DNA of 64,000 nt from Candidatus Saccharimonadales bacterium (GCA_038317055.1 JBBQBA010000002.1:70106-134105), one strand, 5' to 3'; counted from the first letter of the stretch, positions 5,874 through 61,797 are shown. Program-made: numbers and translations. The notes: generated by a model not told the origin, from the sequence alone.

Positions 5874-6854
5874 ATGTCTAGACTCAACATTGTTCGCAGT
5901 CGAAAGGGTCGCTATTTTGCCTATTATGATGGCGACAAACAAATAACAAAAAAAGCAGATCTAGAACGTATTAGAGCATTACGTATACCACCAGCTTGGA
6001 CTAGCGTAGCTATAGCTGGCAGTGAAAATGCCAAGGTACTCGCAAAAGGAGTAGATAAAGCAGGAAGATCTCAAGCAATCTATAATCCCAAGTTTCGAGC
6101 TAAACAAGAATCTTTAAAATATAAAAGAATCCTACTATTTGCATCTCACTTACCGCATCTTCGTCAACAAGTAGAAGAAGATCTTTTAAAACGTGGTCTA
6201 CCTAAAGAAAAAGTACTAGCGTGTATTGTTAAACTTATTGATATCGCTTATTTCAGAATAGGTAATGAAGAATACGCTAAAGAAAATGATAGCTATGGAA
6301 TTACTACTATGAGAAGTAAGCACATAGACGTTACAAATTACAGCGTAACTTTTGATTTCATGGGTAAAAGCGGTAAACGTCACGTCAAGAAAATAAATGA
6401 TCGAACTATTTCTCGAATTATAAAACAATTGGATGAAATGCCTGGCTATGAGATTTTTAAATACAAAGACGAAGAAGGCAAGATGCACGACATATCATCT
6501 CTAGATGTAAACGAATATATAAAGACATACATGGGTGAGGATTTTACAGCTAAAGATTTCAGGACGTGGGGTGGAACCCTACTCGCAGTAGATCTCCTTG
6601 CAACTGAGGACATAAAAGACTCTGAAACAGAACGTAAGCAAGCTGTCACGGCTTGTGTTAGGCGAGTAGCTCAGCGACTTGGTAATACACCAGCCATTGC
6701 ACGTGCTAGTTATATTAATCCACAAGTATTCAAACGATACATGGGTGGGGAAGATTTTGCTAAAGTTAAACAGACTATTTCCCGTATGAAACCGAAAAAA
6801 TATATTTCCGAAACTGAATGGTGTGCACTAAAAATATTAGAAATGAATACTTAG
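5874..6854 (+). CDS. DNA topoisomerase IB (poxvirus-like bacterial type)
   Basis: 326 aa with RIPPAWTSV, AKGVDKAGRSQAIYNP, TAKDFRTWGGT and LGNTPAIARASYINP (catalytic Tyr context). Confidence 0.88.
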   Translation: MSRLNIVRSRKGRYFAYYDGDKQITKKADLERIRALRIPPAWTSVAIAGSENAKVLAKGVDKAGRSQAIYNPKFRAKQESLKYKRILLFASHLPHLRQQVEEDLLKRGLPKEKVLACIVKLIDIAYFRIGNEEYAKENDSYGITTMRSKHIDVTNYSVTFDFMGKSGKRHVKKINDRTISRIIKQLDEMPGYEIFKYKDEEGKMHDISSLDVNEYIKTYMGEDFTAKDFRTWGGTLLAVDLLATEDIKDSETERKQAVTACVRRVAQRLGNTPAIARASYINPQVFKRYMGGEDFAKVKQTISRMKPKKYISETEWCALKILEMNT

Positions 6855-7612: not shown

Positions 7613-8686
7613 GTGTTCAGGACAACAAAAGTGATAAAAATCCCAACCAAACTTCGTAAACCTGAACTAAACAAAATAATTGCAATTTTACTCATATTTG
7701 TTTTGTCATTTGTTGGTGTTAAGCTTTTAACTCAAAGCCATGCTCAATCTCCTTACGTAAATATCGAAGCAGAATCTGGAAATTTAACCACACCCGCCTC
7801 TATTAATGGCGATAATTTATCATCAAACGCTAAAAATGTAGTTTTTGGAAACGTAAATGATCCATCGGGTCAAAGTGTACCGATTGGAAATCAAACTAAT
7901 TTTAAGCAGGTTTTTTACGATAACTTTGCTGATGAGAACGTCCCGCTTGGTAGTTTTTCTGGTTGTGTTAGGGCTTCAACACAGTATTGCAGCGGATTAC
8001 CAAAAACATGTAACACTTCAACAGGATTTTGCTCGAGCTTACCAACAACCGGTCCACAATCAAAATGGTGGGATTATCCAGATGGCTGGCTTGATACACA
8101 AAAAGATTGTCAATATATGCCTTCGCAAACAATGAGCATATCTAGTGGAGTAATGAATATGTTTATACATACAAACAGTGCAGGTACTTGTATGACAGCC
8201 GTACCTGAAGCAAAAATACCAAATGGTTCGCTATCCGATGGTCAATTATACGGTATGTACAGCGTTAGATTTAGATCAGATCCAATTCCAGGTTATAAGA
8301 CGGCATTCTTACTCTGGCCAGATAGTGAAACATGGCCCAGAGATGGTGAAATAGATTGGCCTGAGGGTAATCTTACTGGATCAATGGGAGCACATATGCA
8401 TAAACAAAATGCTACATCAGGAAGCCAACAAGATAATTTCTCCTCTACTGCAACTTATCCATCATGGCATACAGCAACAACGGTTTGGACACCTACATAC
8501 GTTAAATTTATAATGGATGGAGTAGTAATCGGTATATCAACTTCTAGTATTCCCAATACGCCCATGCACTGGGTACTACAAACAGAGTCTGAGCTCAATA
8601 CAACTACTAAACCAGCCGCAAGTGCCCAGGGCAATCTACAGGTTGACTGGGTTTCTGTGTGGGCTTACGATCCATCTATACTTTAA
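7613..8686 (+). CDS. secreted glycoside hydrolase family 16-like (glucanase fold)
   Basis: 357 aa with a signal anchor. WPRDGEIDWPEG matches the GH16 ExDxxE catalytic motif. GTG start. Confidence 0.7.
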   Translation: MFRTTKVIKIPTKLRKPELNKIIAILLIFVLSFVGVKLLTQSHAQSPYVNIEAESGNLTTPASINGDNLSSNAKNVVFGNVNDPSGQSVPIGNQTNFKQVFYDNFADENVPLGSFSGCVRASTQYCSGLPKTCNTSTGFCSSLPTTGPQSKWWDYPDGWLDTQKDCQYMPSQTMSISSGVMNMFIHTNSAGTCMTAVPEAKIPNGSLSDGQLYGMYSVRFRSDPIPGYKTAFLLWPDSETWPRDGEIDWPEGNLTGSMGAHMHKQNATSGSQQDNFSSTATYPSWHTATTVWTPTYVKFIMDGVVIGISTSSIPNTPMHWVLQTESELNTTTKPAASAQGNLQVDWVSVWAYDPSIL

Positions 8687-8703: not shown

Positions 8704-9723
8704 TTAGTCACGGTTAACACTAAAGCTGGCACCATCGACATTTATAGAAGTTGGTGTAGAAATTGGCACATTTGATTGATCGACCATTGTTACGGGTTGA
8801 GCTGAAGCACTATTTAAATTCAAAGCACTACCACTAGATATTGTTGAACCTCCAGTAAATGTAGCTATGCCGTAGTTATCGAATGGAATTTGTCTATATG
8901 ATGAGTAGCTAGGGTCTTCTTCTATCCATTCAGCAGAAGAGTGTGAAGAGTTATATGAAACTGTATTTGAGTAAGATTGTCCGTTTGAATTATCAGTAAT
9001 ATTTATAAGCCATTGACCGCTAGATATTTCTGTTATAGATGCTGACATAGAGTCTCCAGGATTAACGGTAATACTAGAAATATTTATTGATGCACCTGGT
9101 AATAATTCATAAAAAGCTGAAGCTGTGACTTGACCATTACTAGATATAACATTATCTGTGCCTGTTTGAATTAAATCTCCACTAGTTACACCACCGATAC
9201 CGATCCAAGTAGCATCAGCTGAAGTTCTCCCTGAAATACCGGTCGGATTTGTAGCATGCCATGATCCAGAAATTGTTGTGTAGTTACCAACTGTTGCTAA
9301 ATAACCCGACCAATTTGTTGACGTGTAGCTGGTTGTTGATGAAGGCGCAGACCCACCAGAACTTGCCGGAGAAGTTGGTGAGGTTGGTGTAAGAGTACTA
9401 ACACTACTGGCAGGTGATGGAATAACAACCGGAAGTGACTTTGATCCAGTAGTAACACCCGGGGGCGTTGGCTTAACTACTGTAGTTTTGGTGTCCGGAA
9501 CAGGTGTTGGAGTAGAAATTATAGGAACAGTAACAGTGGTTACTACTTTTGTGGTTTTGGTAGTAATTTTCTTAATAACTTTGTGTCTTGGTTGAGTTTG
9601 GTTATTTGTGGTGGAACTGAAATAAGTATATGAAACTAGACTTAAGACTGCTACACCAATAAATATAGGTGCTATGAATTCACGTATTCTAGATAAAATG
9701 GCAGTTAAATATATAGTCTTAAC
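8704..9723 (-). CDS. signal-anchored peptidase G1 (eqolisin/scytalidoglutamic peptidase family); open frame lacks a canonical start
   Basis: The track lists only 8704..9048. My translation shows the frame stays open up to the TAG at 9726-9724 (340 codons). N-terminal TM is EFIAPIFIGVAVLSLVSY, followed by a Thr/Pro linker. Family motifs are NWSGY, SGSWHA, ATWIGIGGVTSGDLIQTGTD (catalytic Gln context) and AEWIEEDPS (catalytic Glu context). Confidence 0.7.
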   Translation of the reverse strand, partial: VKTIYLTAILSRIREFIAPIFIGVAVLSLVSYTYFSSTTNNQTQPRHKVIKKITTKTTKVVTTVTVPIISTPTPVPDTKTTVVKPTPPGVTTGSKSLPVVIPSPASSVSTLTPTSPTSPASSGGSAPSSTTSYTSTNWSGYLATVGNYTTISGSWHATNPTGISGRTSADATWIGIGGVTSGDLIQTGTDNVISSNGQVTASAFYELLPGASINISSITVNPGDSMSASITEISSGQWLINITDNSNGQSYSNTVSYNSSHSSAEWIEEDPSYSSYRQIPFDNYGIATFTGGSTISSGSALNLNSASAQPVTMVDQSNVPISTPTSINVDGASFSVNRD

Positions 9724-9842
9724 CTAAACTTTTGATACTTTATTTATTTATTTTTAAGTTAACATTACTATTTTATCAAACTTTTTGATAATATTGTCTA
9801 CTTTTAAACAGGTTTATAATATATGTATAGGAGAAATAAGCT

Positions 9843-10334
9843 ATGACAAATGAAATTATCAAAGATGCATTTAAGCGAATAAGTGAAGTAGTACACAATA
9901 CAGTAGACGGCTTAAGTGATAATAATCTCGTTTTTAGACCTAATGAATCTGCTAATTCTATTGCTTGGTTAGTTTGGCATTTAACTAGGGTTCAAGATGA
10001 TCATATAGCAAAAGTCGCTCATCAGTCTCAGGTTTGGAGCAGGGGCTGGTATGAAAAGTTTGATTTACCGCTTAGTGAGGACGACACTGGATATGGTCAT
10101 AAATCAGACGATGTAGCTTCAATAAAAGTCAGCGCCAAACTTCTACTTATATACTTTGATGAAGTACACGAAGAAACAATTAAATATATTAATAGTTTAG
10201 ATGATGAAGATTATAAAGAAGTAGTAGATGAGAATTGGGATCCACCAGTTACACTTGCTGCACGTATAGTTAGCGTTATCTCCGATGATCTTCAGCATGC
10301 TGGGCAAGCGGCATATGTAAAAGGTTTGCTATAG
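9843..10334 (+). CDS. DinB/YfiT-like metal-dependent four-helix-bundle protein
   Basis: 163 aa with WLVWHLTRVQDDH and DDLQHAGQAAYVKG (DinB_2-type His triad pattern). Confidence 0.75.
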   Translation: MTNEIIKDAFKRISEVVHNTVDGLSDNNLVFRPNESANSIAWLVWHLTRVQDDHIAKVAHQSQVWSRGWYEKFDLPLSEDDTGYGHKSDDVASIKVSAKLLLIYFDEVHEETIKYINSLDDEDYKEVVDENWDPPVTLAARIVSVISDDLQHAGQAAYVKGLL

Positions 10335-20938: not shown

Positions 20939-21544
20939 TTATAAATTATATATGTATTTCATAAGGTTTTCAGGAGATCTATTTATTCCACCTGAAATCG
21001 GTTTGCCTATGTAGACATGGCAAGTCCATCTGTTAACCCAGTCTATTTTTACCGGTATTAAGAAAGTGCTATTTTCTTTAGCAAGTACTGAAATACCTGA
21101 TTTTACTATTTTCTCACGAGTTCTAGAACCAGAAGGAAACATAAGAATTGTTTGACCTGTTTTTAGTAAGGTTTTGGCTTTGTCTATGCCATATCGTTTA
21201 TTTTCTATAAAATGCGCAGGGAAGCCACCCAGTGAAATTAATAAGAAACCAATAAATCCATTCAGTTAAGTATTTTCAACAAAAAAACGAAACGGCAATA
21301 GTCGATATATTATATTAAAAGGCATTGATGCGGTAATTATAAAAGGATCAAAAATACTTTGGTGATTAGAATAGACAATCAATTTAGAATCTTTTGGAAG
21401 ATTGTTTAAGGATAGAATATTTTTATCAAAACGTAAATTACTCCTGACTATTAAAAATCTAAATATATAGAGAAACATTGCAATGATAATTTGAGCTAAA
21501 TAGACCAATAACTTCTCAGTGCGGTATATATTTTTAGTTTTCAT
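20939..21544 (-). pseudogene. 1-acyl-sn-glycerol-3-phosphate acyltransferase-like (PlsC family) interrupted by one in-frame TAA
   Basis: Track ORFs 21266..21544 and 20939..21142 are in the same frame. My translation reads ...SNHQSIFDPF (HX4D)...FRFFVENT*LNGFIGFLLISLGGFPAHFIENKRYGIDKAKTLLKTGQTILMFPSGSRT (FPEG-like)... The only stop is TAA at 21268-21266. Confidence 0.75.
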
Positions 21545-61182: not shown

Positions 61183-61797
61183 ATGAGTTATGAATTATCT
61201 GATTTTACTTTTGATCGACGTATCAGAGGTGACTTTAAACCAGAAGACATTGCTAAAATAGAAGATCTTCTTGGAGATATATCTACACGTAACTATTTCG
61301 AGGTTGTTGATTATAAGGAAGAAGCTAGCAGGGTTGCAACAAGAGAAGACTTAGCATCTAGATTTAATACAAAATATCTTACCGAATACTTAATTGATGA
61401 TATACCTACATATGTTGTTACTCATGCTGATTTTGTTTGTTTTTATAAATATGAAAAAAAACAAATCAGTCGAAGAAAAATTGAAAGTGCTTGGGGAGTA
61501 TTAGACAAACACTTAACTATGCTCCACAGTAATCAATCAGAACTTGGAATCTCGTCGTGTTTAGACTGTACTCTTGTACCGGTATTTTATAATACACCGA
61601 GTAGTCATAGTCCATCTGAATTTAGCGGTAGATTATCTCTTTTTGGTATTACACCAGACAGCCTAGATGATAATGCTTCTAAGCTAGATGAGCTATCGGC
61701 CGGAAGTCGTCCTATAACTAGGAATAAGCAAAAAATAAATATTTTACCTGTGCATACTATAAGGTTATTTACGGATGGGATAAGGTTAGAAGTATGA
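61183..61797 (+). CDS. hypothetical protein
   Basis: 204-aa ORF with no recognised motif. Its stop overlaps the next start (ATGA). Confidence 0.5.
   Translation: MSYELSDFTFDRRIRGDFKPEDIAKIEDLLGDISTRNYFEVVDYKEEASRVATREDLASRFNTKYLTEYLIDDIPTYVVTHADFVCFYKYEKKQISRRKIESAWGVLDKHLTMLHSNQSELGISSCLDCTLVPVFYNTPSSHSPSEFSGRLSLFGITPDSLDDNASKLDELSAGSRPITRNKQKINILPVHTIRLFTDGIRLEV

Follow-up and report, generated by a model that had tools for sequence, protein, structure and literature searches.

A Saccharibacteria gene for an anchored G1 glutamic peptidase that lacks a canonical start codon ahead of its membrane anchor

We describe a gene that encodes a full-length G1 (eqolisin) glutamic peptidase, composed in order of a membrane anchor, a stalk, and a catalytic domain, in which no ATG, GTG, or TTG precedes the anchor. 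The gene lies on the minus strand of a 64,000-nucleotide stretch of DNA from a Candidatus Saccharimonadales bacterium (GCA_038317055.1, JBBQBA010000002.1:70106-134105). This stretch, which we call the window and whose positions are counted from its first nucleotide, was taken from a metagenome-assembled contig of 332,905 bp in NCBI. On balance we favor a reading in which the gene is still translated at a low level from a near-cognate AUH codon (ATA, ATT, or ATC in the DNA), most likely ATA 9714 or ATT 9699. A preliminary description of this DNA had set AUA/AUU initiation against a very recent loss of the start codon, and our analysis indicates that this was the right question to ask.

Results

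An open frame of 339 codons without an initiator codon

The frame extends from 9723 to 8707, comprises 339 sense codons, and encodes the entire anchor-linker-peptidase protein. It opens directly after an in-frame TAG (9724..9726) and ends at a TAA stop codon (8704..8706). The earliest in-frame ATG, GTG, or TTG is an ATG at codon 226 (Met226; 9046..9048), which is where the public gene call on the source contig begins. This ATG is located 3′ of the codon for the catalytic Gln (9166..9168) and 5′ of the codon for the catalytic Glu (8917..8919), and the public call is a fragment of 114 amino acids that contains neither the membrane anchor nor the catalytic Gln. Because ATG 9048 falls between the two catalytic residues, the 114-amino-acid product, as judged from its sequence, could not be an enzyme. 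These results agree with the preliminary description, which had reported a minus-strand frame open from the TAG at 9726-9724 down to 8704, had placed the first canonical start at about codon 226, and had pointed out that initiation at ATG 9048 would delete the anchor and the catalytic Gln region. The three motifs it had listed (NWSGY, ATWIGIGGVTSGDLIQTGTD, and AEWIEEDPS) are all found in the translation, and its two candidate starts, ATA 9714-9712 (7 nt past AGGT 9725-9722) and ATT 9699-9697, are both present.

The window has 83 stop-to-stop frames that reach 100 codons or more; in this one, 225 codons precede the first canonical start, and the runner-up has 66. By itself, the length of this start-free run is unremarkable, because canonical starts are rare in this genome (ATG, GTG, and TTG together account for 3.0% of codons), internal start-free runs of 150-207 codons occur in its other genes, and an internal Met ahead of the point equivalent to codon 226 is also missing from 20 of 120 homologues. 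The sole anomaly is that the initiator codon is missing. TAG is an ordinary terminator in this genome and ends 19 of 73 genes.

The 5′ region and candidate start codons

An extended -10 promoter-like element, TGATAAAAT, is located at 9770..9778 (minus strand) and may function as the promoter of the gene; a TGnTAnnAT element likewise lies upstream of homologous genes in other Saccharibacteria. At 9745..9747, 22 nt past this element, an in-frame ATA stands where relatives have ATG. The sequence of the window here is GTTAAC, 10 A-rich nt (TTAAAAATAA), and ATA, which compares with GTTAAC, AAAAACAAAC, and ATG in locus L081. This locus encodes P0001, the closest full-length relative. ATA 9747 is followed by AAT AAA GTA TCA AAA GTT and then by TAG 9726, which lies 7 codons downstream of it. 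ATA 9747 is probably a degenerate ancestral start. Because this in-frame ATA occupies the position of the relatives’ ATG, TAG 9726 looks less like a plain 5′ boundary of the frame than like a nonsense codon within the ancestral N-terminus. The most economical history would be one in which an ancestral protein beginning M-N-K-V-S-K-V-x-V-K-T-I-Y-L-T-A-I-L-S-R-I-R-E-F-(anchor) underwent a change of its ATG to ATA and a nonsense mutation in codon 8.

Between TAG 9726 and the membrane helix, we found no ATG, GTG, or TTG, and no out-of-frame start accompanied by a plausible shift site. The region contains three candidate ATH starts. The preferred candidate is ATA at 9712..9714, the first ATH past the TAG, from which translation would place the N-terminus MYLTAILSRIREF ahead of the membrane helix. 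The second candidate, ATT at 9697..9699, would give MLSRIREFIAP. The first residues of this product, MLSRIRE, resemble the frequent family N-terminus ML(K/Q)(K/N)I(R/G), and the TATATT (9713-9708) plus 8 nt that precede the ATT reproduce the spacing seen in leaderless-type genes of the window. The third candidate is ATA at 9685..9687, which in a codon-by-codon alignment falls on the second in-frame ATG of P0001/L081.

A mini-ORF (open reading frame; ATG TTA ACT TAA, 9754-9765, minus strand) lies 4 nt past the extended -10 element, in frame with the peptidase ORF. At the place matching its ATG 9765, the relative L054 has TAAAAT, 4 nt, and an ATG that is likely its real start.

ATH codons at the start position in relatives

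We examined 145 complete loci of relatives that include the anchor, 129 of which have distinct 5′ regions. The typical order in these regions is an extended -10 element (TGnTAnnAT), about 12-25 nt, an A-rich AAAAACAAA(A/C), and the ATG; in some species the ATG precedes the A-rich element, which then reads QKQK. The A-rich AAAAACAAA(A/C) occurs before the anchor in 57 of the 129 distinct loci (including L081:1140-1165, L005, L008, L037, and L101, in the range L001-L168) and in none of 129 control windows taken from within the gene. It may serve in translation or regulation specifically in this family. We also considered the A-rich AAAAACAAAA as a genome-wide signal and rejected it, since there is no enrichment of this sequence across the window (6 matches versus 6.85 expected).

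An ATG precedes the anchor in about 125 of the 129 distinct loci. In at least four further lineages of the family, ATT, ATC, or ATA stands in place of the relatives’ ATG and no canonical start before the anchor is conserved (L018:2677-2760, L030:2605-2690, L083:2923-3000, and L086:2899-3000), and ATH stands at the start position in about 3% of the sampled family lineages. L018 and L030 come from two species represented by metagenome-assembled genomes and share 72.5% nucleotide identity, with a proportion of synonymous differences (pS) of 0.66. Both loci contain the identical 18 nt CAT ATA AAA ACA AAC ATC. The next eight codons differ by four synonymous and two non-synonymous changes, and the differences past the shared stretch are mostly synonymous (AAA/AAG, ATC/ATT, AGG/AGA, TTA/TTG, and CAG/CAA). 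The first canonical starts, GTG in L018 and TTG in L030, are unconserved, each being a synonymous non-start codon in the other locus. The ratio of non-synonymous to synonymous substitution rates (dN/dS) between the pair is 0.09 overall, and for the first 60 codons it is 0.14. Judging from this comparison, translation of both genes must begin at the ATC or the ATA, and both genes are under selection.

The other two lineages are represented by P0002 (L083-85), which is the closest homologue by domain identity, and P0021 (L086-88), each found on three contigs from three samples. The P0002 locus has an ATT 25 nt and the P0021 locus an ATC 23 nt past the -10 element; in both cases the codon stands right after the A-rich element, where relatives have ATG, and no canonical start was found before the anchor in either locus.

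The public calls of P0002 and P0021 are too short, with only ATH codons at the expected start. Those of P0001, P0044, and P0106 are also too short, owing to an upstream ATG that the gene caller overlooked; these three had been considered as additional ATH-start cases and were rejected when the ordinary upstream ATGs were found. N-terminal truncation is frequent among public calls in the peptidase family; the truncated calls begin inside or beyond the membrane anchor, where either a downstream start was chosen or only ATH codons lie upstream. In another relative, L008 (2700-2760), the ATG (ATG CCA TTA GAA AAA AAT TAA) and the ORF lie in different frames on either side of a run of seven A residues (A7). 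L008 could be a case of frameshift mutation, assembly error, or slippage-dependent expression.

Integrity of the coding region and authenticity of the sequence

The body of the gene is not decaying, and its 5′ end is remodelled. No frameshift, stop, or loss of an invariant residue was found in the 339 codons downstream of the TAG. In a comparison with 120 homologues, 74 columns show conservation of 90% or more, and the window protein deviates at 4 of them, all four changes being conservative (T/S, F/Y, A/S, and S/T); 20 of the 120 homologues deviate at those columns at least as much. With regard to the features expected of a pseudogene, a disabling lesion is present (no canonical start, and a TAG past the equivalent of the ancestral start) and further decay is absent. 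The preliminary description had named an ATG in relatives at the aligned positions, combined with other decay, as the outcome that would mark a pseudogene. Relatives do carry ATG at these positions, whereas the decay was not found in the 339-codon frame.

The preliminary description had also recommended that the sequence at 9690-9726 be checked for support. A contig from a separate short-read assembly of run SRR19962015 in Logan (L082), which was retrieved by a look-up with the DinB-like neighbor protein, is 100% identical to the window across 9290-9860. Because this separately assembled contig is identical, the sequence of the 5′ region is real and not an assembler artefact. Exact look-ups of the 114-amino-acid call and the GH16-like neighbor in the contig index returned no match.

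The encoded protein

Residues 136-336 (8716..9318, minus strand) constitute a Peptidase_A4 (MEROPS G1) catalytic domain that matches Pfam PF01828 over profile positions 1-204 of 206 (E=1.7e-32; 113 bits versus a cut-off of 22.3). The catalytic Gln186 (CAA, 9166..9168) is located in the sequence LIQTG and is aligned to Gln24 in the heavy chain of aspergilloglutamic peptidase (1y43_B). The catalytic Glu269 (GAA, 8917..8919) is the second Glu of WIEED; its aligned counterparts are Glu110 in 1y43_B and Glu136 in scytalidoglutamic peptidase (1s2b_A). Both residues are invariant across 28 aligned family members. An AlphaFold model of the protein, built on an alignment of family members, places residues 2-35 in a helix and about residues 40-130 in a disordered segment, and also contains an all-beta domain that is mostly confident. 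Values of the predicted local distance difference test (pLDDT) in the domain are 86-98 in most 10-residue blocks and lower (about 45-70) in three. The domain is predicted to adopt the eqolisin beta-sandwich fold, matching scytalidoglutamic peptidase; its closest folds in the PDB are 2ifw_A (E=4e-13, TMt 0.79) and 1y43_B (TMt 0.83). The assignment to the G1 family in the preliminary description is upheld by the PF01828 search that it had proposed, by the aligned dyad, and by these fold matches, and the layout it gave (a transmembrane anchor, a Thr/Pro-rich linker, and a complete G1 core) is correct.

The membrane anchor, FIAPIFIGVAVLSLVSYTYF, corresponds to residues 16-35 (9619..9678, minus strand), has a hydropathy of 2.24, and lies within the predicted helix. 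No signal-peptidase motif is evident in the protein, and the segment would act as a signal anchor. It is followed by a stalk of about 95 residues (9331..9618, minus strand) that is rich in Thr, Pro, and Ser and predicted to be disordered, with pLDDT below 50 at residues 77-130. Embedded in the stalk is the motif PVVIPSPASSVSTLTP (9385..9432, minus strand; consensus PVVxPSPxSxVSxLTP), in which P98, V100, P102, P104, S106, V108, L111, and P113 are invariant in the 28 sequences. The motif is constant in these members although the disordered stalk around it varies, and it might serve as a site of processing or of glycosylation, or as a segment akin to a propeptide.

A common cell-surface family of Saccharibacteria

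A protein search identified 703 homologues, many of which are already labelled by NCBI as ‘G1 family glutamic endopeptidase [Candidatus Saccharimonadales]’. The best 120 of the 703 are all 250-381 amino acids long and contain PF01828, and nearly all have the anchor-stalk-domain arrangement. We found 81 relatives, mostly Saccharibacteria, among the species representatives of GTDB and 129 in metagenomes of the Joint Genome Institute (JGI). The window protein is a standard member of a very common cell-surface family of Saccharibacteria that has hundreds of members, and it is not unusual. The earlier view of an ‘unusual secreted acid protease for an epibiont-like organism’ is not supported, given the number of homologues, their common layout, and the existing NCBI name; the statement that bacterial members of the G1 family are only sporadic is, for this phylum, outdated by the same search and by the relatives in GTDB.

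The closest relatives reach 54% identity with the window protein along the full length and 68% within the domain in the protein search, at most 62% in GTDB, and at most 73% over a fragment in the JGI metagenomes. A search with neighboring genes for an orthologous locus returned the locus itself at 100%, the next match being at 68%. We found no literature on start-codon usage or glutamic peptidases in Saccharibacteria, and none that deals with run SRR19962015.

Genomic neighborhood

The gene lies in an ordinary chromosomal neighborhood of a saccharibacterium. Nearby are a convergent gene for a signal-anchored GH16-like protein, genes for a DinB-like protein, alanine racemase, and trigger factor, rpoB/rpoC, and a cluster of ribosomal-protein genes. 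The convergent neighbor (7613-8686, plus strand) encodes a signal-anchored secreted hydrolase of the GH16-like type (PF00722), the likely start of which is not the first GTG (7613) but the second (about 7634), which follows AGGA and an A-rich stretch. Positions 5874-6854 (plus strand) encode a type IB topoisomerase of the bacterial kind (PF01028 and PF21338).

Elsewhere in the window, a PlsC-like acyltransferase gene of about 200 codons (20939-21544, minus strand) contains NHQSIFDP, which corresponds to the HxxxxD motif, and matches PF01553 in its C-terminal half. The gene is broken by an in-frame TAA at 21268-21266 (FFVENT*LNGFIGF), and Logan contig L169 (SRR19962015) encodes an identical 92-amino-acid product that ends at this TAA. 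The PlsC-like gene is probably a young pseudogene. Several first-in-operon genes, with starts at 5874, 10360, 51617, 55210, and 61183, lack a Shine-Dalgarno sequence and have TATAAT (or, at 61183, a sequence close to it) at a distance of 7-8 nt from the ATG, an arrangement that suggests that leaderless mRNAs are frequent. The ribosomal-protein genes of the window use AGGAG/GGAGG. An Rfam scan of the window identified three tRNAs and nothing else.

Discussion

The mechanism that we favor can be outlined as follows. The ancestral ATG would have been lost, its positional equivalent now being ATA 9747 with the in-frame TAG 9726 behind it, and the intact body would be translated at low efficiency from an AUH codon that lies downstream of this TAG and upstream of the membrane helix. 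AUA 9714, 7 nt after AGGU, would be the most likely start and AUU 9699 the next. A short, basic N-terminus would remain in the cytoplasm, a single helix would span the membrane, and the stalk would hold the protease out from the cell. Outside the cell, the beta-sandwich protease with its Gln/Glu dyad would presumably digest extracellular or host-surface protein at acidic pH, and an amino-acid-auxotrophic epibiont would scavenge the peptides from the surface of its host or from its surroundings. By analogy with characterised G1 enzymes, the dyad implies proteolysis that would be acid-active and pepstatin-insensitive.

Several observations argue for a functional gene. Continued selection on its body is suggested because the changes (ATA 9747 and TAG 9726) are confined to the first eight ancestral codons, with none that is disabling in the next 1017 nt. 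A total of 339 codons are open in a genome of 36% GC, and AGGT precedes ATA 9714 by 7 nt. A functional ATH start is also the likelier outcome on base rates, because about 3% of lineages hold an ATH and one such pair has a dN/dS of 0.09. Other observations weigh against near-cognate initiation. When start contexts were scored with a position-weight model trained on 62 starts from the window, none of the three ATH candidates was favored: ATA 9714 fell at the 13th percentile of true starts and, measured against internal in-frame ATH decoys, no higher than the 63rd, while ATT 9699 and ATA 9687 fell at the 2nd and 5th percentiles of true starts. The family leader AAAAACAAAA is degenerate in the window gene (TTAAAAATAAAT), and the leader as a whole is about 55 nt long compared with 23-26 nt in the family. 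Non-canonical starts in Escherichia coli yield 0.01-2% of the output of AUG (bioRxiv 10.1101/063800). The PlsC-like gene nearby carries an in-frame TAA that is reproduced in a Logan contig. Finally, no relative closer than 54-68% identity was found for the window gene, and the comparison of ATH conservation and dN/dS comes from the relatives L018 and L030.

The chief competing explanation is that the gene is a very young pseudogene whose last ATG (at 9714, 9699, or 9687) was lost by one G-to-A or G-to-T change and which no longer yields useful amounts of protein. We regard this as a serious possibility, if a less probable one. It accounts directly for a frame with no canonical start in which every candidate ATH is an ATG with one third-position change, and two of the candidates have aligned ATG counterparts in relatives: for ATA 9687 this is the second ATG of L081, and for ATT 9699 it is the Met of ML..IR-type N-termini, the latter being an unscored reading by eye. 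The weak initiation contexts at all candidates, the degenerate 5′ leader motif, and the very low activity of non-canonical starts in E. coli (bioRxiv 10.1101/063800) point in the same direction. G/C-to-A/T changes are expected at 36% GC, and the read-supported TAA in the PlsC-like gene indicates that gene loss by point lesions is under way in this genome. Loss of function is, however, opposed by 339 codons free of frameshifts, stops, and losses of conserved residues, and the start codon is a tiny mutational target compared with the entire gene. The ATH starts in about 3% of family lineages, with one pair at a dN/dS of 0.09, likewise speak for retained function.

It is improbable that the protein is produced by a non-standard route, such as re-initiation after ATA 9747 or the mini-ORF ATG 9765, read-through of TAG 9726, or frameshifting from GTG 9683. 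Such routes are suggested by the position of ATA 9747 and ATG 9765, which are in frame at the place of the relatives’ promoter-proximal start, by the mere 9 nt that separate the TAG from ATA 9714, and by the out-of-frame canonical starts beside A-runs in L008, L083, and L086. They are opposed by the normal use of TAG as a stop (19 of 73 genes), by two TAA codons between ATG 9765 and the ORF, and by the result of the Rfam scan, in which no element besides the three tRNAs was present in the window. Moreover, neither a slippery heptamer nor a homopolymer lies by GTG 9683, where a change of AA to AAA would be needed and the independent assembly also reads AA. On these grounds we rejected both a rescue through GTG 9683 by frameshift or sequencing error and the reassignment or read-through of TAG. 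A phase-variable homopolymer switch was rejected as well, given that the only out-of-frame starts nearby, GTG 9683 and TTG/GTG 9659-9654, reach stops in 1-3 codons, that no homopolymer of at least 5 nt separates them from the ORF, and that the independent assembly is identical; the pattern does occur in the relative L008 with its A7 run. Least probable of all is a sequencing or assembly error that conceals an ATG or an indel bringing a start into frame. Single-base consensus errors do happen in metagenome-assembled contigs, but the Logan assembly of SRR19962015 is identical over 9290-9860 and also reproduces the in-frame stop of the PlsC-like gene, and the remaining 70 or so genes of the window are intact, with no indel noise.

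The possibility of low-level AUH initiation in the window gene invites a broader proposal, which we consider less likely than not. It is tempting to speculate that Saccharibacteria routinely tolerate AUU, AUC, and AUA starts in this protease family, aided by the A-rich AAAAACAAAA, and that the window gene is a live case in which the start has moved just past a nonsense codon. ATT, ATC, or ATA at the site of the relatives’ ATG beside an A-rich leader, with one pair strongly selected, hints at initiation in reduced epibionts that is more permissive than ATG, GTG, and TTG. If such tolerance is routine, automated annotation would systematically truncate or drop these genes in Saccharibacteria genomes. 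If the hint fails, the locus would be no more than a pseudogene of very recent origin in a genome undergoing gene loss.

The protein itself is routine, being part of a large family for which NCBI already has a name. The most useful by-product of the analysis is the family-wide pattern of ATH starts together with the conserved A-rich 5′ element. Start-codon rules distort inventories of Saccharibacteria proteases, because this locus (as the 114-amino-acid call) and those of P0001, P0044, P0106, P0002, and P0021 have all been called too short.

The window protein shares with the MEROPS G1/PF01828 enzymes scytalidoglutamic peptidase (1S2B/2IFW) and aspergilloglutamic peptidase (1Y43) a full-length domain and the dyad in LIQTG and WIEED, and its predicted beta-sandwich fold matches those of the solved enzymes at TM 0.79-0.83. 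Identity to the fungal enzymes is about 25%. The cleavable prepro region of the fungal type is absent from the window protein, which instead has an N-terminal anchor and a long Thr/Pro/Ser stalk that carries PVVxPSPxSxVSxLTP. An acidic pH optimum and insensitivity to pepstatin are defining properties of G1 enzymes, of which pepG1 of Alicyclobacillus is a bacterial example (PMC3009609). Saccharibacteria G1 endopeptidases (P0030, P0042, P0052, P0056, and P0116) have the same length class, architecture, and invariant residues as the window protein at 45-68% identity, and their genes have an extended -10 promoter of the same type. The window copy differs from these relatives in that no ATG, GTG, or TTG precedes the anchor and in that its A-rich leader is degenerate and longer.

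The E. coli genes infC and pcnB start at near-cognate AUU/AUA/AUC codons. Initiation from all 64 codons has been quantified (bioRxiv 10.1101/063800), and mRNAs that start with AUU or AUA have been treated elsewhere (PMC5499595). In contrast to such near-cognate-start genes of bacteria, the window gene has no known autoregulatory logic and a weak initiation context, and we infer its use of an ATH codon. It resembles them in having an intact, conserved coding region in which ATH codons are the only plausible initiators. L018 and L030 extend this likeness, since they, too, keep a near-cognate start under purifying selection.

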